From assembly GCA_000004695.1 (NCBI GenBank), contig CM000155.2, positions 3,328,001 through 3,392,000 of the forward strand: a stretch of DNA of 64,000 nucleotides, given 5' to 3'. The DNA is from Dictyostelium discoideum (lineage: Eukaryota). Position 1 is the first letter of the stretch, and every line of letters begins with the position of its first letter. Of this stretch, positions 9,073 to 64,000 are shown one piece after another. Made by a program: the position numbers and the translations under genes. The notes beneath the pieces are model-generated. The model had not been told where the DNA came from. It saw only the letters and a program-made list of their open reading frames with translations, and did no database searches.

Positions 9073-10058
9073 AAAAAAAAAAAATAAAAAAAATTAGAAT
9101 AAAATTCATATATATACATATATAGAAAAAAAAAAACAAATAATAATAATTATTATTTATTTATTATTTATTTATTTTTAGTTTTATTTTATTTAAATAA
9201 TTTTATAAATTAAATAAAATAATATTATTAATGATGATATAATTATAATATTTTTATTTTTTTCATAAAAATTAATTTCATTTGTTATTGTTGTTATTGG
9301 ACATATTAATTCTTTATTATTTGAATAATAAATATTACATTTTTTATATTTATCAATATTTAATGAATTTAAAGAACATTCAATTTTATCAATTTTAATA
9401 ATTGAGTTCCTATTAATTTCAATATTTGATTCAAAACAACCAATTGGTGATTCTGTTACAAATTTAGTATTATTATTTATTGTAATTAATTTTGAATTAA
9501 TTGATATTAATGAATAGGATGAATTGATTTTCAATATTATCAAAATTTAAATAATTATAATAATAAATTCCTTCAAACATTAAAATAATTGTACCATTTT
9601 CTAAATTTCTAATTGTTGATTGTAAATTTCTACATGGGTATTTAATACTTGACCCACAATTTTCATTTATTGTACTATTGAATTTTCATTTACATAAATA
9701 ATTTCAAATGAAAATAATAATTTCAAATTAATAATAATAAATTTATTTTAATTTTTTTAATATTCATTTGAAATTATTTTTTAGTACATTCTATTTTTAA
9801 ATTTAATATAAGGTAATAAAAAAAAAAAAAAAAAGATATTAAGAACAATTAAAATTTTTTTTATAATTAATTAATTAAATTAATTTTTTTAATAAATGTA
9901 ATAAAAAAAGAGATTTATATTTTAAAAAAAAAAAAAAATTAAAAAAAAAAAAAAAAGATATTAATATTATATGATATAATTATTTTTATTTATTTATTTT
10001 AAGAAAAATTAAATATTGTTTATTTTTTAATTATTAGTTATTAATTATTAATTATTAT

Positions 10059-11936
10059 TTATTTTAATAATGATTTATTTGCAGGAGTTTCATCTTCATA
10101 TAAAACATCATGAAAACCATCATTTCTATCACCATTAGTAGTTTGATTATTATTATTATTGATACTAAATTCTTCAAGATCAGGTTCTTCACTTTCATGT
10201 GGAGCATAACCTCTATAAAGATTTTTATAAATTTTATTTGCTAATAAAACCACAGGAATTAAAGTGAGGAAAGTACAAGCAATGACAATGACAGCAATGA
10301 TGGCTTTTGTTAATCTAAAATCATATTTATAGGTATGATGAGATTCATTTGAACAGACTATATTTGGAGTTGATCTAGATGGTGGTTGAATATTTGGATC
10401 GAATTGAATGATTTCACAAGAGAATGAATTGATATCATTACCAGAGACAATATTTGCATAGGTACTATTATAAGCATCTCCATGAATATTATTACAAACA
10501 AACAAAGATGCATTTATACTTGAGGCATAATCAAATAAAATTAAGGAACTATCACATTTGAATGGTAATTGAGTAGTTGGTGATAATGTTATCTCTTGGA
10601 CTCGAACACTAGCATAATTTGAAACAATGTATGGGAATTCACTTGTTATTGATGGATTTGTACTAATCAATTTAGTTTTTCTAATTTCAACGGTTGAATG
10701 ATGAGCGATAATACTTGGACCATGATCATTGATTGGATTTGAATTAATTTCACCACCTTCAATCAACATTATTGAATTGTACACCCAAATGATACCGGAA
10801 TCCAATGATTTTGGTGTATTATTTTCAATAAAAGTACAATTTATAATTGAGGCTTTATTGGATTGATTTTGGACACTGATAATCTCTTGTTTTGGTGTTA
10901 CTCCATGATGATTGTTTTCAACTTCTTTACCCTCATTCTTTACGATAATGATTGAATCTCCTTTACCACCATTATTAGTAACCATATTATTTTGAAAGTA
11001 ACAATGGGTAATATTTAAATTGGTTATAATGGCAGAGTAATGAATGATTGAAGAGAAAGTACCGAAATTATTACTAAATTGAACATTGGTAATATTTACA
11101 TCAGAGTCAGCGGTATACAATAAACCTTCTCTAGTTAAATATTGACTAAAGAAGGAATCAGAGATATCAATCAAACAACCTTTAGCATTGATAAATGCTT
11201 CATTGGCTCTACCACTTTGGACGATTGTATGTTCTCTAATGTACAACTTTGTATTTCTAATATTGAATATATTTGAACCAGATGTAAAATCAAATTTACA
11301 ATAATCTTCAAATATTAATTCAAACCAACCAATTCTATTAACTTGTGTTGAAATTGAATCAACATCTTCACCAATCATATTTTTAATTGTAGTTTTTCTA
11401 AATATAATTTTAACAACACCACCACCACCACCATTACCAACATCACCACTACCATTAATATTTGAAATTGCATTATTAATTTCAGTTGAATTATTTGGAT
11501 CTAATGATGGGTCAATTAAAGAAACTTCAATGAATTTGTATTTTTCCCATTCTCTAAAGACAATGTTTTCATAGGTAAAAGTAACATTTTTAACACCTTC
11601 TTTAATGGCAACTTGAGCAGAGATATAGATAAATGAATCAACTATACCCGAACCAATGAATTCAACAGGTTGAAGTCCACTTAGACCAATGAATGAAACA
11701 TTGACATTCAATTCATAGAGATTTAATTTTGAACCCAACTCTTGGAAACTTTCAGTACCATATTGACCTGGCATAATTACAAATTCTAACAATCTAATTG
11801 GAATACCGGAATTGTTATTCTTAAAACGTCTAAACTTTTGAAATCCATCAATTATACCTTTACATGGTGTAATTTCATCACCACATTCGGGTGATGTGTA
11901 ATTTACAGTTGATTGAATATTAATTATAATTCTCAT
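10059..11936 (-). CDS. Putative type-I cell-surface protein with an extracellular beta-helix-like repeat domain, a TM helix and a short cytoplasmic tail. The N-terminus is unresolved.
   Basis: The ORF is 625 aa with many NxS/T sites and GG[ASV]/FxxN-type repeat motifs. The TM segment is AIIAVIVIACTFLTLIPVVLL. The frame stays open 87 codons upstream of the first Met, through a (TSTP)6 Ser/Thr/Pro linker and a hydrophobic IINFIYFLQYFLSCTLS stretch, with no in-frame ATG. The true start, possibly a 5' exon, is therefore undetermined. It is a paralogue of the gene at 41650-43221 (ECGDEITPCKGIIDGF versus KCGIDTFTCNSISDAV). Confidence 0.6.
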   Translation of the reverse strand: MRIIINIQSTVNYTSPECGDEITPCKGIIDGFQKFRRFKNNNSGIPIRLLEFVIMPGQYGTESFQELGSKLNLYELNVNVSFIGLSGLQPVEFIGSGIVDSFIYISAQVAIKEGVKNVTFTYENIVFREWEKYKFIEVSLIDPSLDPNNSTEINNAISNINGSGDVGNGGGGGVVKIIFRKTTIKNMIGEDVDSISTQVNRIGWFELIFEDYCKFDFTSGSNIFNIRNTKLYIREHTIVQSGRANEAFINAKGCLIDISDSFFSQYLTREGLLYTADSDVNITNVQFSNNFGTFSSIIHYSAIITNLNITHCYFQNNMVTNNGGKGDSIIIVKNEGKEVENNHHGVTPKQEIISVQNQSNKASIINCTFIENNTPKSLDSGIIWVYNSIMLIEGGEINSNPINDHGPSIIAHHSTVEIRKTKLISTNPSITSEFPYIVSNYASVRVQEITLSPTTQLPFKCDSSLILFDYASSINASLFVCNNIHGDAYNSTYANIVSGNDINSFSCEIIQFDPNIQPPSRSTPNIVCSNESHHTYKYDFRLTKAIIAVIVIACTFLTLIPVVLLANKIYKNLYRGYAPHESEEPDLEEFSINNNNNQTTNGDRNDGFHDVLYEDETPANKSLLK

Positions 11937-36715: not shown

Positions 36716-36815
36716 NNNNNNNNNNNNNNNNNNNNNNNNNNNNNNNNNNNNNNNNNNNNNNNNNNNNNNNNNNNNNNNNNNNNNNNNNNNNNNNNNNNNN
36801 NNNNNNNNNNNNNNN
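36716..36815. other. Assembly gap (100 N)
   Basis: Run of n. Confidence 0.99.
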
Positions 36816-40443: not shown

Positions 40444-40563
40444 TTAATTCAAAGGGTACCGAGNNNNNNNNNNNNNNNNNNNNNNNNNNNNNNNNNNNNN
40501 NNNNNNNNNNNNNNNNNNNNNNNNNNNNNNNNNNNNNNNNNNNNNNNNNNNNNNNNNNNNNNN
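40444..40563. other. Assembly gap (120 N)
   Basis: Run of n. Confidence 0.99.
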
Positions 40564-44457: not shown

Positions 44458-45005
44458 TATTTATTTAATATTTAATATATTTATATAGATGAGAGAAAAA
44501 AGGTATGGTTTAAGAACATTTTTATTTGCAATTTTAGCATTACAAGGATTAGTTGGTCATTTATTTAAAATTTATTTACAAGGTTATTTTGATAAAGATC
44601 CAAATCAATTTTATAATTTAATTGGTGCTTACACTTTATTTGGTTTAGCTTTATCAATTAGAAGATTTAAAGTTCCAGAATCATTTAAACCTGGTCATTT
44701 TGATGTTTGGGTAAATATTACATTTAATATAGTATATAATATAATATAATATAATATTATATAATAATTTAAATTTATTTGAAAAAATAATTATTTAATT
44801 TAATTTAATTTATTAATTTATTAATTTATTTATATGTTAAAAAAAAAAAAAAAAAAAATTTATCATTCTCAAACAGTTTTCAAGCCATCAAATATTTCAT
44901 GTTTTAGTAGTTTTTGGAACATTTCAATTAATTAAAGCGTACAGTTATATTTATTTAAATAAACTCGATAATGTAGGATATGTAAAACAATGTTTGGGTT
45001 TTTAA
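43531..45005 (+). CDS. PAQR (progestin/adipoQ receptor) / hemolysin-III family 7-TM protein. Three exons: 43531..44388, 44489..44710 and 44877..45005.
   Basis: Family motifs are present: HNDTLNIWSHLLGALFYLVLF (ExxNIWTHLxG-like), YHTYRSHS, and the C-terminal SHQIFHVLVVFG in exon 3. Intron 1 is ATT / GTAAGT...ATATAG / ATG. Intron 2 is TGG / GTAAAT...AAACAG / TTT. All are phase 0. There is an Asn/Gly-rich N-terminal extension. Confidence 0.75.
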
Positions 45006-45142
45006 AAATAAATAAATAAATATATATTTATTATCACTACAAGTAGATGAAATACTATTTATAGGGATTGTTTTTATTTTTATTTTTTATTTTCACTATT
45101 TTAAATTACCTTTACGATGACAACAACAATAAATACACTATA

Positions 45143-45191
<49 letters not shown>

Positions 45192-46237
45192 CCCCACACC
45201 ACTATCTCTCCCCAAAAAAAAAAAATTAAATCAATTATAATAATAATAATAATAATTAAATGCATTATATATATATGGGGAATAATTAAATAAATTAATA
45301 TAATTAAAATTATAAATAATTATTAAAAAAATAAGAAATTTAATTTTAAATTTTAAAAGAAAAAATAATAGGCTGGGAAATAGAAATAATTAAAAATAAA
45401 AAATAAAAAATAAAAATAATAAAAATAAAAATAATAAAAATAATAAAAATAAAAATAAATTTATTGTAGTAACTTCTTTATGTGTTTTTTTTTTTTTTTT
45501 TTGTTCATATGACAGATTTAAATATCAGACCCCCCATGAAAAAATTCAAACATAACACCTTCTAAAACAGGTGAGAAAATATCTATCTGAAACGTGGCTT
45601 GATTGTTTTTGATAGTGGTTTATTTAACAAAATAAACCACTATTTAAATTTCTTTTAATTTCTGCAGATTTTATACACCCTATTTCAATTAAATAATTAT
45701 TTTTTTTTTTTTTTTTTTGGAAATCTAAGTTGTGTGAGTGGGTGTTATTGAAAAAAAAAAAAGAAAAAAAAAATGAAAGGTGGTTTTTTTTTGAGTGTGG
45801 TGCATTCAACATTTAGATTGATATGATGTTGAAATGATGTTGTTTGTTCAATCTAAATACCTTTAAAAAAAAATAATAATTAAAAAAAAAAAATTTAAAA
45901 AAAAAAAAAAAGTATTCATATGATTTTTGGTTGGTATTTTAGTGATAGTGTTGAAATTGATATTTTAAGAAAAAAAAAAAAAAAAAAAAATAATATAATA
46001 ATTTATAACAATATCACTGATATTATTTTTTGATATGAAAAATGGCGAATTTTCAATGTTAATAAAATTTCGTCATATATGTTGAAATTAATTTTTGGAA
46101 ATTTGCAACAACCCATCATATTTTTTTTTTTTTTTCAGAAAATTGATAAAAATAAATTAATAATCAAAAAAAAAAAAAAAAAAAAAAACATTCCCCAGCA
46201 CACAAAAAAAATCAATAAACACCCGGATTGGGAAGAT

Positions 46238-46288
<51 letters not shown>

Positions 46289-46784
46289 AAATAAAAAAAA
46301 GTAAAAAACAATAGTAAGTATTAACAAATTTAAAAAAAAAAAATTAAAATTTAAAATAAAAAAAAAATCTAAAATGGGCATATTTATATATATAATTGAT
46401 ATATCAGTACAACACCACACACTTATACACCACCCAAACACACCTACGCTCAAATTCATTTTTTTTAAATCCAATACTTACCTCTCTCACTTCAGATATC
46501 TATTTTAAAAAATGTGATAAGTCTTTAAAATTTTACATTTTTTTTTTTTTTTTTTTTAAAAAACAATCTGTAGTAGTTGGTTATTTAAAAATAAATTTAT
46601 AATAAATAATTAAAAATAATATAAATAAATAAATAAATTATTTTTTTTATTTTTTAATTTTTTTAATTTTTTAATTTTAAAAATAAAAAAATATAAAAAG
46701 AGAAAAAAAAAAAAAAAAAAATTAATAATTAATAATCTTATAATCTTATAATCTTAATAATAATAAAAATTAATTATAAAATAT

Positions 46785-46822
<38 letters not shown>

Positions 46823-46877
46823 TTATTTTTTAAAATTAAAAAATATATACCAAAAAAAAATAAAAATAAAAATAAAA

Positions 46878-46895
46878 ATGAATTGTATTAATAAC

Positions 46896-46935
<40 letters not shown>

Positions 46936-47705
46936 TTATGATACCAGATTTAAAAAATAATGATACTGGTAGTAGTGCTGATGATGGAAGAAGTGAAGGA
47001 GTTGCAGACTATCAAGTTTATGGATTTTATACATCTTGTTCATTTAAAGTTTATTTTATGTTTGAAGAATTAAATATACCTTATCAAACTTGTTTAGTAA
47101 ATATTAGATCTGGTGAACATTTTAAAGGTGAGTTTGCAGAAATGTCACCAAATAATAAAATTCCAATGTTAATTGATAATACATATAGTGTCGACAGTGG
47201 TGATGATGATGAACCTTTAAAAATCTTTGAATCTGGTGCAATTTTATTATACTTGGCAGAGAAATATCAAAAGTTTTTACCACCATTATCAAAACCAAAA
47301 GAGAGATGTCAAGTTCAACAATGGCTATCATGGCAAATCTCGGAAATGCAACCAGCTTTAACCTCTTATGTATATTATTTTATGATGGCACCAGAACCAG
47401 TTGCTTTTGGTATGGAAAAAGCTGACCAAGATTTACACAAAATTTTAAAGGTTTTAGATAAACGTTTAGATGATGGTAGAAAATATATTTGTAATGAATT
47501 TTCAATTGCTGATATAGCTTGCTTTGGTTTCGGTTCTTATTTCAATTTAAATGTTTTCAAAGGTTGGAATAAATATGAAAATGTTGTACGTTGGGTAAAT
47601 ACAATGTCTTCAAGACCTTCTATCTCTAAATTATTACCAATTGTTGAACAAACTTTAAGAGTTAGAAAATTAAAAAGATTAGATAATCAAGAATTAGTAC
47701 TTTAA
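46878..47705 (+). CDS. Glutathione S-transferase, YfcG/Nu-class (URE2/GTT-like)
   Basis: MSPNNKIPMLIDNTYSVDSGDDDEPLKIFESGAILLYLAEKY is nearly identical in pattern to E. coli YfcG (ISPNNKIPAIVD...GGEPLSLFESGAILLYLAEK). EFSIADIACFGF matches YfcG NYSIADIACWPW. It is a single exon with a short poly-Asn N-terminus. Confidence 0.85.
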
Positions 47706-47776
47706 AAAAAAAAAAAAAAATATTTAAAAAAATATTTAAATAAATAAATAAAAATACCCTATTTTGTAAAATAAAA

Positions 47777-48388
47777 CTAATTTAATAATAATTTATAAGT
47801 TTCATTAAATTCTTTATTTGAAATTCTATAAATTTCATTATTCTTAATTAATGGTATGACTAAATAATCATTTTCCTTAAAAATCATTTTTTCACCCCAA
47901 CTTGCTATTAAATAAAATTCATATAATAAATTATTATTATTATTATTTCTAATTTCAATATTTTTATTATTTATTTTCAAAAAATTTAAAATTTCCTTAT
48001 TTACTTTAATTGCTTTTATTTTATTATTTTCATTATTTTTTGGTTTATATAATTTCCATTTATTATCACTATTATTATCATCTGAAATATTAAATAATTC
48101 ATATTTATCATTAAATTTATTAAATGGTATTATATATTGTTCATTTGCATTGGTTTGATTCTTTATTAGGAAATCATCACAATTTTTTATTTTATTTATT
48201 GTTTCTAATCCATCTGATGTAATTGTTTCTACAATTGATCCAATTTGATTAATTTCACATTTAATAGCTTCAATATTTTGAAATTTATAATAAACATTTT
48301 GATTTCCTTGAATATTAAAAAAATTTTCATTTAATAAATTTAATAGTTGATCATTTTGGAAAATTATAATTTCCTTTTGTATTTCCAT
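47777..48388 (-). CDS. Hypothetical protein (203 aa)
   Basis: Non-repetitive ORF: MEIQKEIIIFQNDQLLNLLNENFFNIQGNQNVYYKFQNIEAIKCEINQIGSIVETITSDGLETINKIKNCDDFLIKNQ.... No recognisable domain. It lies convergent with the GST gene. Confidence 0.4.
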   Translation of the reverse strand: MEIQKEIIIFQNDQLLNLLNENFFNIQGNQNVYYKFQNIEAIKCEINQIGSIVETITSDGLETINKIKNCDDFLIKNQTNANEQYIIPFNKFNDKYELFNISDDNNSDNKWKLYKPKNNENNKIKAIKVNKEILNFLKINNKNIEIRNNNNNNLLYEFYLIASWGEKMIFKENDYLVIPLIKNNEIYRISNKEFNETYKLLLN

Positions 48389-48697
48389 TTTAAATTTCTT
48401 GAATTAAACAATTGTGTGTGCGTGTTAAAATAAAAATTTTCAAATAAAAAAAAAAAAAAAAAAATAGAAAAACAAATATCTTTTTTTTATTTTTTTTTTA
48501 TTTTTTTTTTTTTTTCAAACAAAAAAACTCAATTTTAATTTTTTAATTTTTTAATTTTTTAATTTTTATATTTTTTTTAACACACACTTTTTTATACATA
48601 TAATATAGTTTTTAGTTTTTATAATTTGTTTTTTTTTTTTTATAATAATTAAATAGAGTAAAAAAAAAAAGTATATATATATTTAAATTTTATTTAA

Positions 48698-50105
48698 ATG
48701 GGTAGTCCAACTATTAGTGATCAAGAAAAATCCCAAGTTGCCTTTATAGCAGGTAGTAGTTCTGATATTCATTCAACTACTGTTGCAAGATTGTATGAAG
48801 GTAGACAAGGAAGATGGGAATTTATGGCCGTCGGTATTGTTTCTGTTGTTTCAAATCGTGTAGATAAAACAAATTATATCAAAGTTTTCGATTTAAAGGT
48901 AAGTTATTATTATTATTATCATTATTATTATTTACAATATTAAAACTTTTTTTTTTTAAAAAATTAACATATTAATTTTTTTTTTTTTTTTATTATATTA
49001 TTTTTTTAAAAAAAAAAAAGGCCAACTACAGAATCATTTTTGAACAAGAAATTTATGACACTTTTGAATTTCAAAAACAAAGAGATTTCTTTTTTGCATT
49101 TGAAGGTGATTCCTGTGTTTATGGCTTATCATTTGCTGATGTAACTGAAGCAGCTGAATTCTATGGCCAACTTTTAAATTGTAAACAAGGAAATATTGGT
49201 AAAACTGCTGCAATTAATCCAAATACTTCTTCAACCAGTATGTTTTTAATTATTTTTTAATTTACAATAACAATAATAATAATAAAAATAACCTTATTAA
49301 TAATTTTTTTTTTTTTTAAATAGAAATTACTGCATCAACACCAGCACCAAAAGTTGAAAAGAAAAAAGAAAAGAAAGGTTTTATGTCTAAATTCTTTTCA
49401 TCGGAAGAGAAAGATTTGGAAATTTCAGCTCCAACCAACTTTAAACATGAAAGTCATATTGGTTGGGATCCAGAGAATGGTTTTGATATTAAGAATATCC
49501 CACCAGATTGGAGAAAACTTTTCCAATCTGCTGGTATTAAGAAGAGTGAATTAAAGAATGCAGAAACTGCTCAATTCATTGTCAATATCATTGGTGAACA
49601 AATGGTTGGTGGTTCAGCTCCACCACCAACTCAACCAGGTAGATCAGCTCCACCAGCTCCACCATCTTCAAACCAACCAGGTAGATCAGCTCCACCACCA
49701 CCACCATCTGTTGGTAAAAGTGCTCCACCACCACCACCACCATCCCATAAGACACCTGCAGCTCCACCATCAGGCGGAGGTGCTCCACCACCACCACCAC
49801 CTCCACCACCACCTTCTAGTGGTCCACCACCTCCACCACCACCAATGGCCAGTGCTCCTCCATCATCAGGAGGTGGTGGTGCCAGCGGCGGTGGAAGAAA
49901 TGATCTTTTGGCTTCCATTCGTAGTGGTGCAAGTCTTAAGGCTGTTGATAAAACCAATCCACTCCCAGATATTCAAAGTCTTGGTAATGAAGGTTCACGT
50001 TCTTTAGCTGATACTTTAGCTGCAGCTATGGCTAATCGTAGAGGTGGTATGAGAGAAGATGATGAAGAAGATGATGATGACGATGATGAATGGTCAGATT
50101 ATTAA
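48698..50105 (+). CDS. wasA: WASP (Wiskott-Aldrich syndrome protein) homologue with WH1/EVH1, basic, CRIB/GBD, polyproline, WH2 and acidic domains. Three exons: 48698..48898, 49021..49237 and 49324..50105.
   Basis: The WH1 domain is split by intron 1 (AAG / GTAAGT...AAAAAG / GCC): ...NYIKVFDLK/ANYRIIFEQEIYDTFEFQKQRDFFFAFEGDSCVYGLSFADVTEAAEFYGQLL. Intron 2 is A / GTATGT...AAATAG / AA. The CRIB motif is ISAPTNFKHESHIGWDPENGF. Proline tracts PPPPPPS are present. The WH2 motif is GGRNDLLASIRSGASLKAVDK. The acidic tail is DDEEDDDDDDEWSDY. The spliced length is about 399 aa. Confidence 0.85.
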
Positions 50106-50444
50106 ATTATTCTTTAACAAAATTCAAATTCAAAAAAATCATTAAATAAAGATTTCTTTATTTCTTTCACCAAAAAAAAAAAAAAATTTTATTTCTTTTA
50201 TTTTAAAAAAAAAAAAATTATTAATAAATCATATTTTTGATCAAAACTTTTTTTCTGATTTTTTTATTATTTTTTTTTTTTTAATTTTAATTATTTTTTT
50301 TTTTAATTTTTTTTTTTTTTTTTTTTTTTTTAATTTTTAATTTTTTTTTTTTTTTTCAATTTAATTTGTTGAAAATCAATTATTTTGTTGTATTTATAGA
50401 TAGTGAATTGTAGGGTTAAAGAAGGAAATAAAAAAAAAAAAAAA

Positions 50445-50606
50445 ATGGATGTAAATAATTTAAAACAAATTTTAGAAGAGACGTCAGCTCTCTCTGATCA
50501 TAAAACAAAAACAGAGAAATATAAATCAATTCTTCAACAACTTGTTGAATCAAAACAAGTAGCACCATTAAAAGTTTTTATTACACATTGTATGTATTAT
50601 TTATTA

Positions 50607-50648
<42 letters not shown>

Positions 50649-51169
50649 TCATTATTTACTTTATTAAATTTTAATTAAATTTAATTATTTTTTTTTAAAA
50701 AATAATAGTGACAGATGAATCAACACCATTAGTAATTTCACGTACAATTTTATTATCATTTACATCAAGTCATAAAACATTACCAGAGGATATTCAAATG
50801 GAGTTAGGTATTTTCGTATTGGATCGTATTCAAAATAGAGTTGTAGCATTTGAAGAACAAGTATCAGAGATTCGTTATAATCTTGCTAAATTATATGAAC
50901 GTCAAGAGAATTGGAGAGAATCTGCTCGTTGTCTTATTGCTATTCCATTGGATAGTAGTCAACGTGTTATCTCACCAGAATATAAAGTTAAAATCTATGT
51001 AAAGATTGCACGTCTCTTCCTTGAGGAAGAAGAATCTGGTCAAGCTGAAACTTATATCAATAGAGCAAGTGATTCATTACATTTAGTTAAAAATCAAAAA
51101 TTAATTTTAGCACATAAAGTAAGTAGATATACAAATAATTTATAATATATTCATATATAACATATTAAT

Positions 51170-51200
<31 letters not shown>

Positions 51201-51841
51201 GTTTAAAAAAAAAGACATGCTTTGCAAGAATTATGGATTATAAAAGAATGTTTTTAAAAGCAAGTTTAAGATATTATGATTTATCACAATGTTTACCAAA
51301 GGATACAGAGAGAATGCATGCATTATCATGTGCAATTGTTTGTGCAATTTTGGATAAAGCAGGACCACAAAGATCACGTACATTGGCAACATTGTATAAG
51401 GATGAGAGAAGTCAACAACTTGGTGTTTATACATTTTTAGAAAAGATGTTTTTAGAAAGAATCTTAAAGAAAACTGAAGTTAAAAAGTTTGCAGAACAAT
51501 TGAAACCACATCAAATGGCATTACTCTCTGATGGTAATACCGTATTGGATAGAGCTGTAATCGAACATAATCTCTTATCTGCAAGTAAACTCTACAATAA
51601 TATCACTTTTGATGAATTGGGTTCTCTTTTGGAAATTCAAGCTGAAAAAGCTGAAAAAGTCGCCTCAAAAATGGTCTGTGAAGAACGTCTCATTGGTTCA
51701 ATCGATCAAATCGAACGTCTCATTCAATTTGAAAATGTTGGTGATTCTCTCACTCAATGGGATAAAAAAATTGAAGGTCTTTGTATTCATATGAATAATA
51801 TTATTGAATCAATTTCAAAATATCCAGAATTTATTGTATAA
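50445..51841 (+). CDS. csn4: COP9 signalosome complex subunit 4 (CSN4), PCI-domain protein. Three exons: 50445..50589, 50709..51118 and 51215..51841.
   Basis: It is colinear with human COPS4. [13 protein letters not shown] matches [52 protein letters not shown] matches [70 protein letters not shown] matches [61 protein letters not shown] is identical to human except for D/E. Introns are T / GTATGT...AATAG / TG (phase 1) and AAA / GTAAGT...AAAAAG / ACA (phase 0). Confidence 0.9.
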
Positions 51842-53111
51842 AATAATAATAATAATAAATAAATAAATAAATAATAAATAATTAATAACGAATGAAATAA
51901 AAAAAATAAAAACTAAAATCCTTTCCTTTTTTTTTTTTTTTTTTTTTTTTTTGTTCAAACAGGTATGAATTTTTTTTTTTGTTTAATAAATAATTTTTAA
52001 TTAAAATTCTTAAAAAAATGGAACATGTCTAAAATTTTATCTAAACAATTTAAAATTTTATTTTTTTATTTTTTTTATTTAAATAATAAAAATAAAAACA
52101 AATAAAAAAGATAAATGGAATTATTTAATTGGAAAATTGTAATCATTTTTTAAATAATATTGCATAGTTTTTTTTTTTTTAATTTATTTTTATTTAAAAA
52201 TTAATTAAAATGGAAATCGGGAAATATTTATTGGATTGATAATATTGGAAATAGAATAAATTTAATATTGAACTAGATAAGGAAATAAAAGTTAGGGATT
52301 GGCTTTGGCTTAATAATAAAGATGAAAGAAGTTAAAGGAACTATTTATAGAAAGAAAATTGNTAAAAAAAAAAAAAAAAAAAAAAACCAACGCTTGGGCC
52401 TTTAAAGAAAATTGGAAAAAAAAAAAAAAAAAAAAAAATTTCATCAAAATTTGTAAACGACATTTATTTTTTTTTAATTTTTTTTTTTTTATTTTTTATT
52501 TTTTATTTTTTATTTTTTATTTTTTTTTTTTTTTTTTTTTTTTTTTTAGCGATANCTCCTTTTTTTTTAATAATTTTCAACAACAATAAATTTATGTAGT
52601 TTCATAAATGGAAAAAGATAATTTTTATTTTGATTTACAATTATTTAATATAAATAATTTAAAAGAAAANTCAATTATTTGAATATTTTAAAAGGGTAGA
52701 CCCCGATAAAGATAATTTAATTAGTATAATAACAAGATACCCAAATTATATAAATTATTTATTTAATAATAATAATAATAATGATTTTAATAATAAAGAA
52801 TTATTTTATATTAAAATTATAGAATATTTATTAAATAACCAATCAAATAATTTTAATTCATTTTTAAATTTATATAATATAATAATAAATCATAATTTTA
52901 TAAAAGTTTGTATATAAATAAAAAAAAATAATAATAATAATAATAAAAATTTTAATATCATTAACTTTTTTTTTTTTTTTTTTTTTTTTTATAACATTTT
53001 AATTTAAAGGAATTATCAATTAAAATTATAAATATTATATTAAAATTTGAAAAAACAACAGGTTTAGAATGTTCAGTTTATAATTTTTATTTATTATTTT
53101 CATTATTAGAA

Positions 53112-55976
<2,865 letters not shown>

Positions 55977-56036
55977 AATATAAATAAATAAATAAAAAAA
56001 CAAAATAGTATTATTATATAATAGGTAAAAAGAGTA

Positions 56037-56136
56037 NNNNNNNNNNNNNNNNNNNNNNNNNNNNNNNNNNNNNNNNNNNNNNNNNNNNNNNNNNNNNNNN
56101 NNNNNNNNNNNNNNNNNNNNNNNNNNNNNNNNNNNN
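56037..56136. other. Assembly gap (100 N)
   Basis: Run of n. Confidence 0.99.
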
Positions 56137-56526
56137 TTCACTTAATGTTGATGGTGTTATTGTTTTTTTCTAAGAAAGAGAGTGGTCTTGTGATTGATGG
56201 AGGTGCATGATATCTAATTGATTATCAAGTCCTTTGTTTAGTGAGAGTTGGTTTGTTGGGGTTTGTTTTTTAGGTGTGTCGATTTTTGCACTTTTATTTT
56301 TTGTTGTTGAGGTTGTGGAGGTATTATTTGTATTGGTCGTGTTGTTATCTGTATGATTTAACTGTAATTCAGTTGAGTGATCATCAGCCATTGTTGAAAA
56401 GTATATAGGACGATAGCCCTTGCTTTAATGAGCAAAAAAAGGGTAAAATTAAGAGGAATGAATGTGGCGGTGAAGATATAACAGTGATTTATTTATTATA
56501 TGTATAAATTCTCCACATAAACATTT

Positions 56527-57201
56527 ATGGCCCTAGATGATACAGCTCAAAAGGTAATAGAAGCATCACTAGAAAACGTAGATGAACTAACAAGAATAGA
56601 GAATGAGATCAATACCCAATCGATAAAAAATCAAGAAATTAAAACAAAATCAGAAAAACCTATTGAACCACCATCTCCATACAATACACCAATAAAACAA
56701 CACGGCGAAACAAAGAGACTAACAACGGAAGAAAAACTTAGAGAGGTAAATGATATCTTCGACTTCACCAGCCCAAACACTGATGCAATAAGAAAAATAG
56801 AATTCCCACTTTCAATCCCTTCAAATCAATGGTTCTTCTCCTCTCCAATAAAACATATCATGAGTTTCAGCCCAACCTATGGTACACCATCGAAAATTAT
56901 CGATTCACCAAGTAAATTGTTAAACACACCAAAAAACAAACAACAAGACAAAACAAACAGGACCAACAAAACACCAGTCAAACCAAAATTGGGTGAATAT
57001 GGACAAAAAAGCATAAAAACAAAAATGGATGAAGATATAGACAACTTCAACAAGGAAATTCTAAAACAAATCAATAAATCAAAAAACCCCACAAACACAC
57101 AAGACCAACAACACAACGAACAAAGTAAAGATCAGTTAGAAGACAAAATAAACCAGAAACTTCAAAAGGTAGATAAAAATCTACCCCAAATAAAACTATA
57201 A
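56527..57201 (+). CDS. TRE5-type retrotransposon ORF1 (224 aa)
   Basis: MALDDTAQKVIEASLENVDELTRIENE... has host-atypical codon usage. It is immediately followed, with a -1 frame overlap, by the endonuclease ORF. The assignment is by context, not by homology. Confidence 0.6.
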   Translation: MALDDTAQKVIEASLENVDELTRIENEINTQSIKNQEIKTKSEKPIEPPSPYNTPIKQHGETKRLTTEEKLREVNDIFDFTSPNTDAIRKIEFPLSIPSNQWFFSSPIKHIMSFSPTYGTPSKIIDSPSKLLNTPKNKQQDKTNRTNKTPVKPKLGEYGQKSIKTKMDEDIDNFNKEILKQINKSKNPTNTQDQQHNEQSKDQLEDKINQKLQKVDKNLPQIKL

Positions 57202-57455
57202 AGAAAAACACAATAAGAATAGGTGTTTGGAACGTCCAAGGATCCAACACCATCCAATCTGCCAGCATAATAAACACCGTTTTAGACAACAACAAGCTGG
57301 ACGCAGCACTTCTAACTGAAACAAATATAAAAACAAATAAAATTTACTCAATAAATCAACAATATAAAAACAAAATAACACACCACGCACCAATTGATAA
57401 AACAGGACAAGGGGTGTCACAAATCATCATCAACACCCGCAATAGAACTTCCTAA
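57183..57455 (+). pseudogene. Truncated TRE5 ORF2 (first about 90 codons of the APE-type endonuclease only) followed by poly(A). This is an internally deleted element variant.
   Basis: WNVQG...LLTETN are endonuclease N-terminal motifs. Stop TAA is at 57453-57455. The (A)66 run is at 57487-57554. Confidence 0.6.
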
Positions 57456-57497
57456 ACATCTCAAAAAATACAATAATTCACTCAGTACTTTCTATAA

Positions 57498-57557
<60 letters not shown>

Positions 57558-57900
57558 CCAAGTTAATCAGAAAAATAAAAAAGATAGAAAGAAAATAAAA
57601 TGAAAATCACAAACAACACCACAAATATTAAGCAACACAAATGCCTACAAAAAATAAGCGAAATTGTGGATAAAACTCAATTAAAAAAAAAACAATTCAA
57701 ATACGTCATAAACATCAATCACGAACCAGACGATAAAATAAAAAAAGATTTAGAAAAAAGTTGGGACAAAAAAGATGTTTTAATCAAAAAGACCCTGTAA
57801 AAAAAAAAAAAAAATAAAATGAGATCTAGCATCTCAAGGAGAAGCAAATAATAATTGCGTTATCCAATTCAAAAAAAAAAAAAAAAAAAAACAATTCAAA

Positions 57901-58273
57901 AAAAAAGAAAAAACAAACAACAACAACAATCTCTTTTTTTGATTATTTCATTTTTCATATAAAAAAGACTTAAAAAACAAATAAATAAATAAATAAACTA
58001 TTTTAAAAAGCCATCTTTTTACTTTATTGTAATTTATTATTTGTTTCGTTTTGAGAATTTTGCGTAGCAAAATTTTCAAAAAAAAAGCAAAAAATAATCA
58101 GATCGAAAAAAACAAACAACAACAACAATCTCTTTTTTTGATTATTTCATTTTTCATATAAAAAAGACTTAAAAAACAAATAAATAAAAAAAGCAAAAAA
58201 TAATCAGATCGAAAAAAACAAACAACAACAACAATCTCTTTTTTTGATTATTTCATTTTTCATATAAAAAAGA

Positions 58274-58290
<17 letters not shown>
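57901..58290 (+). repeat. Three tandem copies of an about 100-bp unit (A-module-like 5' UTR unit of TRE5) lying between two C-module copies.
   Basis: The unit ...aataatcagatcgaaaaaaacaaacaacaacaacaatctctttttttgattatttcatttttcatataaaaaagacttaaaaaacaaataaataaa is repeated at about 57905, 58100 and 58200. Confidence 0.7.
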
Positions 58291-58310
<20 letters not shown>

Positions 58311-59454
58311 GGAACCCAAGTTAATCAGAAAATTTCCAGATTTTTAACTTTTTAAAGTAAAATAAAAAAAATAGAAAGAAAAAAAGATGAAAATTACAAA
58401 CAACACCACAAATATTAAGCAACACAAATGCCTACAAAAAATAAGTGAAATTGTGGATAAAACTCAAACAAAAAAAAAAAAAAAAAAGTAAACTAACCCC
58501 TCTTTTAAAGACCCTGTAAAAAAAAAAAAAAAAAACCTAAAAATAAAATGAGATCTAGCATCTCAAGGAGAAGCAACTAATAATTGCGTTATCCAATTCA
58601 AAAAAAAAAAAGGTTTATTAAAAAAAGTCCACCCAAATATATATAACATCACATAACGCACTTTACCCTCGACATAAAAAAAAAAAAAAAAAAAAAAATA
58701 TATATAAAACTAATAACCCGGAAAAAAAAAAAAAAAGGGGACCATTGTAAAATTAAAACCTACTATATTAAAATGAGATTAATCTCATGAAGAAGCAACT
58801 CACAATTGCGTTATTCCATTCAAAAAAAATGGTTTATTGAAAAAATAATTGCGTTATCCAATTCAAAAAAAAAAAAAAAGAAGAAACTACAAATAAGAGA
58901 TTAATAGTTTATTTGTATATTTAAGATAGTAAAGAAAACACAATTCTTTTTATTTAATATTTTTAGAGTATTTATATTAATATTTTGAGTACCAGGATGA
59001 GCCTTCTATAGTCAGTTAGTATTTAATATTATTTATTGTTATTGGCAAACCTTCTAAAGTCGGTTATTACTAGTAACTGAATTATATTATGATTCTTATG
59101 ATTTCCATATTAATATATGTCAATACATAAATCCATATTAGTTTTAATATGGTGAATCATTACATTATTTATATTTAAATTTATTTATATTTTTATTTAA
59201 TAGCTTAATAATAATCTGAATCAAAATTAAATTATTTTTTTATATTTATAATAAATTAAATGAGTGACATTTATATAATTTGACAAATTTAAGATATTTA
59301 TTTTATTTTTAAATAATATAAATAGTATAATTTTATAAAAAATAAGGTAATTTTATTAGTATAAAAAGAAAAATAATTTTATATTCAGTGGGTTACATAC
59401 ATAAAATATAATTACAAAAGACCACTTTCGTTATATTTTTTTTTTTTTTTTTTT

Positions 59455-59535
59455 TTAAGTCTTTTTTATATGAAAAATGAAATAATCAAAAAAAGAGATT
59501 GTTGTTGTTGTTAGTTATTTTTCGATCTGATTATT
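59455..59535 (-). mobile_element. Inverted copy of the same about 100-bp TRE5 A-module-like unit, ending about 50 bp upstream of tRNA-Phe.
   Basis: aagtcttttttatatgaaaaatgaaataatcaaaaaaagagattgttgttgttgttag...ttttcgatctgattatt is the reverse complement of the forward unit at 57.9-58.3 kb. The distance to the tRNA 5' end is about 50 nt, the characteristic TRE5 target distance. Confidence 0.55.
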
Positions 59536-59584
59536 TTCAAAACTTAAATATCCTTACTGCTTATAAAAACAAAATTTTCATCAA

Positions 59585-59658
59585 GCCTTAGTAGCTCAGT
59601 TGGTACGAGCGTGAGACTGAAGATCTTAAGGTCGCTGGTTCGATCCCGGCCTGAGGCA
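59585..59658 (+). tRNA. tRNA-Phe (anticodon GAA)
   Basis: GCCTTAG-TA-GCTC-AGTTGGTAC-GAGC-G-TGAGA-CTGAAGA-TCTTA-AGGTC-GCTGG-TTCGATC-CCGGC-CTGAGGC-A. The acceptor stem is 7 bp, D-stem 4 bp, anticodon stem 5 bp (one G-U) and T-stem 5 bp. The A box is TAGCTCAGTTGG and the B box is GGTTCGATCCC. The anticodon loop CTGAAGA closely matches yeast tRNA-Phe. Confidence 0.95.
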
Positions 59659-59688
59659 AAGATTTTAAAATAAAAATATTTGATCGCA

Positions 59689-59699
59689 AGTTCGATCCC
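59689..59699 (+). promoter_or_regulatory. External B box (exB) about 30 nt downstream of the tRNA gene
   Basis: AGTTCGATCCC repeats the internal B-box consensus 31 nt past the tRNA 3' end. Extra downstream B boxes are a known peculiarity of many Dictyostelium tRNA genes. Confidence 0.5.
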
Positions 59700-60738
59700 T
59701 GTTTTAGGTATTTTATTTGTTTTTTTATAAATCGTAATGAGCTTCGAATTCCAGCTAACGTTCTATTCATAATTTATATGTGATAACCCTCTTTGTTTAT
59801 TATCTATATAGGAAAAAATTATTCCAATTATATTAAATGAAAATTTTCAGTTTTATTATCTTATTACTCACAAATTTAAATATGTTAAAATTATATAAAT
59901 ATACACGCCAAAGAGCTTTTTTGAAAAAACATAAAAAACCAAAAAAACCTGAAAAACATAAAAAGAAAAAAAAAAAAACAAAAAAAAATCTTAAATACCC
60001 CAATAAACCTAAAATAAAAAAAAACCAAATTAAAAAAAAAACCTAAAAACCTTAAAGAACCTAAAAAAAACAAAAAATCCTAAAAACCTTAAAAAACCCA
60101 AAAAAACTAAAAAAAACTAAACAAAAAATAAAAAACCCACTTAACACAAAATTACTCTTCACCACTTTAATGCTGAAATTTTTACATCCAACCACCCTTA
60201 TTCTTTTTATTTTTTTTAATTTTTTTATTTTTTTTATTTTTTTTAGTGGTCCAAAGAGCATATAAAATGACTAAAATAACTAATTTTTCTTTTTATTTTT
60301 TTTTTTCGCATTGGCGTGTAAATTTATAATTAAAAAATAAAATAAAATAAAATTATTAAAGATATATCAATTATTATTATTAAATTACACGTGATATTAA
60401 TATTAATTATGCACATTGTTTTTAAAAATTTCAACACATTAAAAAAAAAACTTGTAACTCACAAATTATTTTTTATCTCTTTGTCCAATAATTTTTATTC
60501 TTGTATGAATTGAAATTATAATTGTAATATATTATTCAATTATAAACTGGAAAACAAATTAACAAAATTTATTCTAATTTTAGTTAAAAAAATTCTTTGA
60601 TTAAAAAAATTGCCGAATTTTTATTTTTTTTTTATTTTAATATTATTTTTTTTTTTTTTATATTTCGAAAGAAAAATATAAAAAGAAATAAAAATCAAAA
60701 GTCATATTCATATATCAAAATATACAAGTTTCAAAAAA

Positions 60739-61063
60739 ATGAATAAGGTAAAACCTAGGAAATTTAAACATAAATAATTTTAGATTTTTTTTTTTTTTAC
60801 TAATTCCAAAATTAAAGTTATTAAGTTTAATAGGATTTGCTCTTTTCTATGCTTTATTTCTTTTCTCTGTAGGCTCAAATGCTGAAGCAAATGGGTGCTC
60901 TGTTTACGTCGAACCTTATCAGTACTACGGTTTTTCGTGTCTGGACATGTCAATAAATTGCAACATACCATTTAAAACTTTTATGAGAATTAATAATTTA
61001 GATATGAAAAAGGATTGCGGTTACGAAAAAGTTGTATTGGGTAAAAGATATTGTTGTAATTAA
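60739..61063 (+). CDS. Small secreted Cys-rich protein (about 84 aa). Two exons: 60739..60747 and 60818..61063.
   Basis: ATG AAT AAG is followed by a GTAAAAC donor. The acceptor is ...AAATTAAAG, and exon 2 is TTA TTA AGT.... The product is MNK/LLSLIGFALFYALFLFSVGSNAEANGCSVYVEPYQYYGFSCLDMSINCNIPFKTFMRINNLDMKKDCGYEKVVLGKRYCCN. It has a signal peptide, eight Cys and C-ending codons (TAC, GTC, TGC, GGC) typical of highly expressed Dictyostelium genes. It was missed by the ORF track because of the 3-codon first exon. Confidence 0.45.
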
Positions 61064-61681
61064 ACAATGATAAACAAAATTTAATAAATTCTCTTTATGA
61101 AATTATTATTTTCAAAACTTTCAAATCATAAGTCCCAATTTTTTTTTTTTTTTTAATTTTGTAAAATTTTATTTTATCTTTTTATAACATTAAAATATTC
61201 TATTTTAATTATTAATGTTTATTCTATTGTTGTTAATTTAATTAAAATTATATTCAATTAAATATTTTATTAAACATTTCCATAAAGGGTTAAAAAAATA
61301 ATATAATTAATTTTAAATTAAATTTTAAAAAAAATAAATATAAAAAAATAATATAAAAAAATTAATGGAAATTAATTTAGAAAGAATTAATTAGAATTAT
61401 TCAGAGTAATAATTAATATTAATTTTAGAAAATAAGAATTAAAATGCTATACATAAAACTATAAAAACCCCTTTATATATATATATATATAAATAATAAA
61501 CTTCTTTTATTCGTCTCCCCATTGCTAAATTGTCTTCATTTATTTAGCAAGAATAATAGATAAAAAATAATTAAATAATAAACAAATTTAACTATTGTTA
61601 AATGATTCCTGTAAATGTTACAAAGATATTCATTATTATTATTTTTTATTATTTATTTAAACATTTTTATTTTTATTTTTT

Positions 61682-63511
<1,830 letters not shown>

Positions 63512-64000
63512 TTTTTCATTATGTTTTCAAAAAGTAAATAATAAAAGGTAAATGCTTTTTTTTTCTTTTTTTTTTTTTTTTGGATTTTTATTTTTTTTTT
63601 TTTTTTTTTTTTGGTTGATGATGTGGTTTGTAATGGGTACTTTTTCTTTTTTTTTTTTTAATTTTTCTTTTTCTTTTTCTCTTTATTTTTTTTTTTAACA
63701 TAAATATCAACAACCACTCAAGATTCGAAACACTTTTTTTTTTATTTTGTTCCGTTTTAACCGAACTTTTTTTTTTTTCTTTTTTTTTTATTTTTTTAAA
63801 AATAAAAAAAATATCTAAAATTTAAATTAATGCTGCAAAGATTTTTATTATTTTATTTTTTTTTTTATTTTTTATTTTTTATTTTTTTTTATTGAGTCAA
63901 TATTTTCCTGATCAATTTCTTATTTATTTTTTAATTTTAAAATTGATAACCCACTCGATTTGAAAATAGAATTTAATAATGTAAATACATTTTTTTTATC

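Follow-up and report, generated by a model that had tools for sequence, protein, structure and literature searches.

TRE5-A retrotransposons of Dictyostelium discoideum are built from a small set of modules, arranged as AB-ORF1/ORF2-BC in TRE5-A.1 and as AB-ORF1-BC in TRE5-A.2 (ORF, open reading frame), where a large deletion of ORF2 and a 72-bp deletion at the B/C junction leave 87 bp of the 137-bp C-module (PMC3159450). The B-module carries the start of ORF1, and its 3' duplicate is specific to TRE5-A, with no counterpart in TRE5-B or TRE5-C; the C-module of TRE5-C is 78% identical to that of TRE5-A and has a 51-nt terminal structure (PMC3159450). A TRE5-A insertion invariably has the 5' end of the element turned towards the 5' end of a tRNA gene (PMC3159450), lies at a canonical distance of 47 +/- 3 upstream of that gene (PMC5391098), and generates target-site duplications (TSDs) of 10-16 bp (PMC9012585). 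The ORF1 protein is about 51 kDa (PMC5911963), TRE5-A.2 has been shown experimentally to be mobilised in trans by the ORF2 protein of TRE5-A.1 (PMC3159450, PMC5391098), and a fresh TRE5-A insertion above a resident TRE5-A.2 provides a documented precedent for stacking (PMC9012585). Here, we analyzed a 64,000-nucleotide stretch of D. discoideum DNA (the window; GenBank assembly GCA_000004695.1, contig CM000155.2, positions 3,328,001 to 3,392,000) in which several TRE5 fragments (designated E0 to E4) lie next to a tRNA-Phe gene. They very probably represent an ordinary TRE5 pile-up between two divergent tRNA genes, consisting of a TRE5-A.2 (E1), an ORF-less TRE5-A derivative (E2), a TRE5-C-like fragment (E3) and remnants.

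The TRE5 stack and its probable target tRNA gene

A scan of the window with ARAGORN identified tRNA-Phe(GAA) as its sole tRNA gene (59585-59658, plus strand). For comparison, we used TRE5-A-type copies from other Dictyostelium assemblies (L001-L003, with L002 coming from Dictyostelium cf. discoideum) and the orthologous locus of a near-identical strain (L004; assembly GCA_054883475.1, record JBTAPE010000001.1, at about 3,306,200), which was reached via a 609-aa flanking gene and is gap-free there. A second locus on the same record (L005rc, at about 3,372,362) was also included. Window positions 56519-64000 are collinear with L004 (99.4% over 7482 bp), and the stack is therefore real; the unique DNA at 58881-64000 shows zero single-nucleotide polymorphisms (SNPs) relative to L004.

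To the left of 56519, L004 continues in order with the N-terminal half of ORF1, the 5' B-module, an A run of about 45 and the A-module (unit, spacer, unit), and a tRNA-Glu(UUC) gene is located on the opposite strand 49 nt beyond the 5' end of E1. The suspicion raised in the earlier note, that the assembly gap at 56037-56136 hides the 5' junction, was thus correct. Because the 5' ends of the plus-strand elements face tRNA-Glu, which in L004 is 49 nt from the first of them, these elements would have targeted tRNA-Glu, not tRNA-Phe. E1 obeys both the distance and the orientation rule of TRE5-A at tRNA-Glu in L004. The modular order is also that of TRE5-A, with the 3' B-module duplicate in the window (57556-57789) and the 5' A- and B-modules in L004. 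The 3' ends of E1 and E2 are likewise of the TRE5-A kind, with three-stem C-module structures and tails (A21 in E1 and A12 in E2); E3 also keeps a three-stem structure in its C-module.

The locus would therefore represent the common upstream spacer, originally about 0.65 kb, of divergent tRNA-Glu(UUC) (minus strand) and tRNA-Phe(GAA) (plus strand) genes. TRE5 elements would have integrated by target-primed reverse transcription (TPRT), with binding of the ORF1 protein to TFIIIB thought to pick the site, and successive insertions at about -50 of tRNA-Glu would have pushed older copies outward. From the oldest and farthest to the youngest and nearest to tRNA-Glu, the order is probably E0, E3, E2 and E1. 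When the elements are peeled off in order, E3, E2 and E1 would each have entered at about -50 of tRNA-Glu. A separate integration at -47 of tRNA-Phe probably left one A-module unit and an A run (E4). As a TRE5-A.2, E1 is predicted to be mobilised in trans by the ORF2 protein of TRE5-A.1.

E1 has the architecture of TRE5-A.2

The features of E1 in the window are as follows.

56519-57891, plus strand: E1, the 3' two-thirds of a probable TRE5-A.2
56519-57201, plus strand: ORF1, C-terminal part only, beginning at about codon 219 of 444, by comparison with AX4 proteins and L004
57180-57436, plus strand: 5' stub of ORF2 in the -1 frame, overlapping the end of ORF1, from translation; the alignment with L001 stops at 11287
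57437-57499, plus strand: last 63 nt of the ORF2 region, aligning with L001 from 14248 onward and with the ORF2 3' end of L002
57500-57555, plus strand: A run, A56 by run-length count, preceding the 3' B-module
57556-57789, plus strand: 3' B-module, 234 bp, with an ATG at 57600; a duplicate of the ORF1 start region by alignment
57790-57870, plus strand: 3'-terminal 81 nt of the C-module, with the three-stem 3' structure intact
57871-57891, plus strand: poly(A) tail, A21 by run-length count
57892-57906, no strand: right copy of the TSD, 15 bp, caattcaaaaaaaaa; the left copy lies beside tRNA-Glu (L004 18013-17999)

In protein comparison, the 224-aa ORF at 56527-57201 is 93-98% identical to proteins of D. 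discoideum AX4. Two of these (P0001 and P0006) begin with MKITNNTTNIKQHK ('MKITNNTTN...') and reach 'MALDD...' only after about 220 residues; the window ORF1 is therefore just the C-terminal half (224 of 444 codons). The complete E1 in L004 measures 2.36 kb and has an intact ORF1 of 444 aa. The ORF2 stub, about 80-90 codons with an apurinic-endonuclease-type N-terminus ('IGVWNVQG...LLTET'), ends at 57436, where the DNA alignment leaps from L001 11287 to 14248, so that about 2.96 kb is absent and the 3' end of ORF2 is kept. As judged by this alignment, the loss of ORF2 is a plain internal deletion and reproduces the published TRE5-A.2 architecture.

A 66-aa ORF in the 3' B-module ('MKITNNTTN...') matches the N-termini of P0001 and P0006, and since this start recurs after the A run, the B-module is duplicated. 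The 3' copy lacks 7 bp and 29 bp that are present in the aligned 5' copy. The B/C junction reads 'ttaatcaaaa/agaccctg' (the slash marks the joint) and, compared with E2, L001 and L002, is missing the end of B, an A run and gtaaactaacccctcttttaa of C, a deletion that is characteristic of TRE5-A.2. Further downstream, the last 54 nt of E1 fold into three stems (-11.3 kcal/mol) with the published three-stem shape, and the TSD is perfect over its 15 bp between the left copy in L004 and the right copy in the window.

Taken together, E1 resembles TRE5-A.2 (formerly the short DRE form) in its AB-ORF1-BC order, the large deletion of ORF2, the B/C deletion that keeps the 3' C-module, the intact C-module structure, the poly(A) tail, the 15-bp TSD, the 444-aa ORF1 intact in the orthologous copy, and its placement, with the 5' end pointing towards a tRNA gene from 49 nt upstream. 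It differs in that the copy in the window lacks its 5' 1.35 kb, in whose place a foreign repeat lies beside the gap, in that the C-module piece is 81 nt compared with 87 (owing to a difference in A-run length), and in the additional 7-bp and 29-bp deletions of the 3' B-module.

These results confirm an internally deleted, non-autonomous derivative, as the earlier note had proposed, and alter several of its details. The note described ORF1 with about 90 codons of ORF2; the stub has about 80-90 codons as stated, while only the C-terminal half of ORF1 is present. A run given as (A)66 contains 56 pure A (57500-57555), it is separated from the endonuclease stub, to which it was said to be joined directly, by the 63 nt of ORF2 3' end at 57437-57499, and what follows it is not the C-module at once: the 234-bp B-module comes first and then 81 nt of C-module.

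The A run before the 3' B-module has equivalents at exactly the corresponding position of other copies: A61 in L001, about A30 in L004 and a run of similar size in L002. Four copies have a further run, of about 27-45 A, where the 5' A- and B-modules meet; one is E2 (A30), and the other three are in L003 and L004. The long A run between the end of ORF2 and the 3' B-module is thus a canonical inter-module feature of TRE5-A, and since comparable runs exist in three other copies, no template switch is needed for the tract in E1. Homopolymer lengths differ between the window and L004 at 57500-57555, 58277 and 58676-58677 (for instance, A56 compared with about A30), which could reflect either true instability or sequencing-platform error.

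The left edge and the assembly gap

The window is interrupted immediately to the left of E1, where the following features were observed.

56037-56136, no strand: assembly gap, 100 N long; L005rc is matched by 45000-56036 as far as the gap edge, and L004 from 56519 onward
56137-56518, minus strand: foreign multi-copy repeat, 382 bp, its 5' end abutting the truncated ORF1
56170-56391, minus strand: 73-aa ORF in the foreign repeat, its N-terminal part matching two AX4 proteins

The two gap edges lie about 66 kb apart on JBTAPE010000001.1, in unchanged order and orientation, and the 100 N together with the 382-bp foreign repeat correspond to about 66 kb in the gap-free assembly. This interval holds tRNA-Glu and unique genes, including those for a ubiquitin-conjugating enzyme and a polyketide synthase. 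With 85% of the query covered, the N-terminal part of the 73-aa ORF matches two AX4 proteins at 98%, one of them encoded on a 3.60-Mb contig and the other on a contig of 8.48 Mb; since this part is common to proteins on two contigs, the foreign 382 bp is a dispersed repeat. No DNA match to 56137-56518 was found in L001-L004 (80 kb of DNA rich in transposable elements, TEs) or elsewhere in the window, and we found no mention in the literature of the two AX4 proteins that match its ORF.

Over 56519-64000, the window and L004 differ by 14 SNPs, all of them in TE DNA, and eight fall within the 599 bp of 56519-57117 (Fisher p = 3e-6); the left flank (window 45000-56036) has 9 SNPs in 11 kb. The leftmost stretch after the gap, about 1 kb long (56137-57117), does not agree with the orthologous copy and appears to stem from a different TRE5-A copy with an unrelated repeat at its side, which suggests either a contig-end misassembly or an ectopic (non-allelic) recombination between TRE5-A copies.

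A genuine rearrangement at this edge may be entertained tentatively. It would involve non-allelic recombination between the ORF1 of E1 and another 5'-truncated TRE5-A beside the foreign repeat, with up to about 66 kb, including tRNA-Glu, deleted or relocated. Such an event would agree with the clustering of SNPs to the left of 57117 and their absence from unique DNA, as well as with the presence of both flanks on one contig, in kept order and orientation, in the other assembly; in addition, dispersed repeats are known to put this genome at risk of recombination (PMC9012585). However, the discrepancy falls exactly at a contig end by a gap, where stray reads of other repeat copies commonly extend contigs, and in the other assembly unique sequence runs on past the left gap edge, so the gap hides some DNA regardless.

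Shortly past the stop codon of the upstream gene, the contig to the left of the gap breaks off inside a perfect hairpin, aaaaagagtatatatactcttttt (56026-56036; L005 2376-2340, minus strand), which is followed by long T runs. This hairpin is the likely cause of the sequencing break and is possibly a transcription terminator. Besides this gap, two others of 100 N are present in the window (three in all: 36716-36815, 40464-40563 and 56037-56136), along with single Ns at 908, 43415, 52362, 52555 and 52670; the gaps at 36716-36815 and 40464-40563 may hide substantial sequence as well. Another kind of internally deleted derivative occurs in L002, where the partial A unit of a TRE5-A-type copy (9898-10010) runs directly into the C-terminal third of ORF1 ('...tttctttttt/agtgaatttggac...', the slash again marking the joint), with ORF2 genes following.

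The short elements E2 and E4

E2 follows E1 directly, and E4 lies on the other side of the spacer, next to tRNA-Phe.

57907-58611, plus strand: E2, A-B(deleted)-C, without ORFs
57907-57997, plus strand: A unit 1 of E2, starting at the 5' end common to other full-length copies
57998-58086, plus strand: spacer of 89 bp between units 1 and 2
58087-58192, plus strand: A unit 2, from repeat comparison
58193-58276, plus strand: A unit 3, in tandem with unit 2 only, with a 106-bp period
58277-58306, plus strand: A/B-junction run, A30 by run-length count
58307-58469, plus strand: B-module with an ATG at 58387; a deletion bounded by two A runs cuts it off past about codon 27
58470-58487, plus strand: A18 by run-length count, at the junction of the B deletion and the C-module
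58488-58599, plus strand: complete C-module, by alignment and fold
58600-58611, plus strand: tail, A12 by run-length count
58880-59435, no strand: AT-rich unique spacer, presumably the original DNA between the two tRNA genes; identical in L004
59436-59537, minus strand: E4, a solitary A unit with A21, which reads as T21 in plus-strand orientation (59436-59456); the 5' end (59537) points towards tRNA-Phe
59538-59584, no strand: interval of 47 nt between E4 and tRNA-Phe, the canonical TRE5-A distance
59585-59658, plus strand: tRNA-Phe(GAA), with its internal B box at 59638

The A-module region of E2 is 98.4% identical to the A-module of E1 in L004, and E2 starts at the same 5' nucleotide as E1 does there, close to the starts of two copies in L003. 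The last 54 nt fold into three stems (-11.1 kcal/mol), and the B-deletion junction reads gataaaactcaaac(A)n gtaaactaacccc. The three tandem A units of about 100 bp that had been described are indeed three in number; units 1 and 2 are split by the 89-bp spacer, and only units 2 and 3 are tandem. The C-module of this element, first taken to be internally deleted, is complete, and the deletion is in the B-module of E2. We also considered E1 and E2 as products of one unequal crossover, given their common 5' nucleotide, and rejected this origin: two L003 copies start at about the same place, which makes it the normal 5' end, the perfect 15-bp TSD encloses E1, and a 6.5% difference separates the B-module of E1 from that of E2.

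E2 consists of A-, B- and C-modules and a tail only, as expected of an ORF-less ABC derivative arising by recombination between the two 'A-run + B' repeats of TRE5-A. It departs from such a derivative in two ways: it carries one A unit more (two and a half A-modules), and another deletion, of about 130 bp and bounded by two A runs, has shortened B. The ORF-less ABC derivative would be the form called TRE5-A.3 (Glockner et al. 2001), a putative label for E2.

Because E4 alone obeys the 5'-facing orientation rule at tRNA-Phe, it is the only piece that this gene can have attracted. The inverted A unit reported about 50 bp from the tRNA holds up: 59436-59537 ends 47 nt from tRNA-Phe. No B-module or C-module was found for E4, and no repeat matches were found in the spacer at 58880-59435. 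E4 would most likely have been shortened by a deletion starting at the A/B-junction homopolymer. It resembles the leftover of a deletion between repeats, in the manner of a solo long terminal repeat, and differs from a LINE-1-type 5' truncation in that it keeps the 5' end and not the 3' end, the opposite of such truncation. An inversion between E4 and the plus-strand A units was also considered and rejected, since it merely shifts the solo unit to the other tRNA.

It is somewhat unlikely that E2 and E4 arrived in their present short form and were not cut down in place; in that case they would stem directly from retrotransposed short RNAs, or from reverse transcription that started on the internal A run rather than on the 3' tail. 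Both elements have canonical distance and orientation, E2 at -50 of tRNA-Glu before the insertion of E1 and E4 at -47 of tRNA-Phe; E2 shares its 5' nucleotide with E1 in L004, lies near the L003 starts in this respect and has an intact C-module and tail, and the A unit of E4 runs straight into A21 exactly as at an A/B junction. On the other hand, E4 has no detectable TSD, and that of E2 is not resolvable. More speculatively, and with still lower probability, the internal A runs (at the A/B junction and before the 3' B-module) might serve as alternative TPRT priming sites and deletion hotspots that routinely yield ORF-less A-B-C mini-elements and solitary 'A unit + A run' copies, both still placed at -47 to -50 relative to tRNA genes. 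If this were true, copies of the E2 and E4 types would be propagating or recurrent, not the result of one-off decay.

On the downstream side of tRNA-Phe, a second B-box-like motif, GTTCGATCC, is located at 59690-59698, 52 bp downstream of the internal B box; it corresponds to the 'external B box' that is common at Dictyostelium tRNA genes and is the target of TRE3 elements. In addition, a degenerate A/C-rich repeat ('aaaaaccta'-like, periods 9-52) was observed at 59924-60200, about 270-540 bp downstream of tRNA-Phe, and its portion at 60145-60200 matches L003 5294-5348 at 87.5%. This repeat may be the remnant of a downstream-targeting (TRE3-type) element.

The probably older elements E3 and E0

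Two further 3' ends are present between E2 and the spacer.

58612-58626, no strand: left copy of the E3 TSD, ggtttattaaaaaaa, matching the right copy at 14 of 15 positions
58627-58829, plus strand: E3, a 5'-truncated 3' end; C-module diverged and TRE5-C-like, tail A8
58831-58845, no strand: right copy of the E3 TSD, ggtttattgaaaaaa, 15 bp
58846-58879, plus strand: E0, a mini-insertion of the last 19 nt of the TRE5-A C-module and A15, an extreme 5' truncation

E3 is flanked on both sides by 'ggtttattRaaaaaa' (a TSD with 14 of 15 positions matching). Compared with TRE5-A, its C-module reaches 83% identity across the final 54/51 nt and 71% across 87 nt, and the terminal 51 nt fold into three stems in the shape of the 54-nt TRE5-A structure. 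Alignment revealed no B-module sequence upstream of the E3 C-module. The 71-83% identity to TRE5-A and the 51-nt three-stem end, as published, liken E3 to TRE5-C, from which it differs in being only about 200 bp long; the comparison with TRE5-C was made by published description. A third 3' end had been recorded in the earlier note, and E3 is indeed such an end, a diverged one; the fourth, mini 3' end at 58846-58879 had been missed.

E0, with its 19-nt C-tail and poly(A), shows the extreme 5' truncation typical of TPRT and is in this respect similar to 5'-truncated insertions of the LINE-1 type. An identical 19-mer with A9 is present in L004, 21 nt from tRNA-Glu. Both solitary C-tails (L004 18026-17999; window 58846-58879) begin in the loop of the third stem, and this common start suggests a preferred stop point of reverse transcription or a small duplication.

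Reliability of the stack

The TSDs that could be mapped, a perfect one of 15 bp for E1 and one of 14/15 for E3 (that of E2 is not resolvable, and none was found for E4), together with the anatomy of the elements and their distances from tRNA genes, support the view of the earlier note that these are TRE5-type fragments left by repeated position-specific integration.

It is very improbable that the whole stack is an assembly artefact in which one full-length element was scrambled by repeat collapse. The region does adjoin a gap, its leftmost 1 kb has the look of a chimera, and TE DNA holds 14 of 14 SNPs; however, the other assembly is contiguous here and repeats 56519-59700 collinearly, with the same junctions, TSDs and truncations, and the deletions in ORF2 and at the B/C junction match published TRE5-A.2. 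A single element disrupted by assembly error, which had been named as the finding that would overturn the first description, is thus at odds with the gap-free assembly.

Least credible of all is the original picture in which every fragment was stacked onto tRNA-Phe as a landing pad and the A tract, considered odd, arose when the reverse transcriptase switched from the endonuclease stub to a poly(A)/C-module template: none of the fragments is more than 3.1 kb upstream of tRNA-Phe, the window has no other tRNA, and the A run is long (56 nt), but the plus-strand elements are wrongly oriented for tRNA-Phe and 0.7-3 kb off (PMC3159450), tRNA-Glu is 49 nt from the 5' end of the stack in the orthologous locus, the A run comes only after 63 nt of ORF2 3' end, and full-length copies carry the corresponding run (like runs, about A30-A61, are found in L001, L002 and L004).

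Several points weigh against an ordinary pile-up between tRNA-Glu and tRNA-Phe. The tRNA-Glu gene is known only from the other assembly, its position in the window being covered by the gap, and the independence of that assembly is assumed from its different accession and from the absence of a gap at the locus. The labels TRE5-A.2 and TRE5-C are based on architecture and published descriptions rather than on direct alignment to type sequences, and the reference TRE5-A copies, which come from other strains or a sister species, are 79-91% identical to the window in DNA. Inspection of the flanks revealed no TSD for E4, and the flanks of E2 are A runs that obscure its TSD. Finally, the two solitary 19-nt C-tails, and the 15-mer ggtttattgaaaaaa that stood between them before E3 inserted, are not fully explained.

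Significance of the locus

The pile-up between tRNA-Glu and tRNA-Phe is already-described biology, a textbook case of tRNA-gene-targeted retrotransposition and stacking in Dictyostelium. Its value lies in curation: the gapped assembly omits the tRNA-Glu gene and the 5' third of a probably active TRE5-A.2, and, by comparison with the gap-free assembly, about 66 kb is omitted at the gap. It also follows from this locus that TRE5 copies are to be assigned to their target gene by their orientation relative to the tRNA, not by proximity alone.

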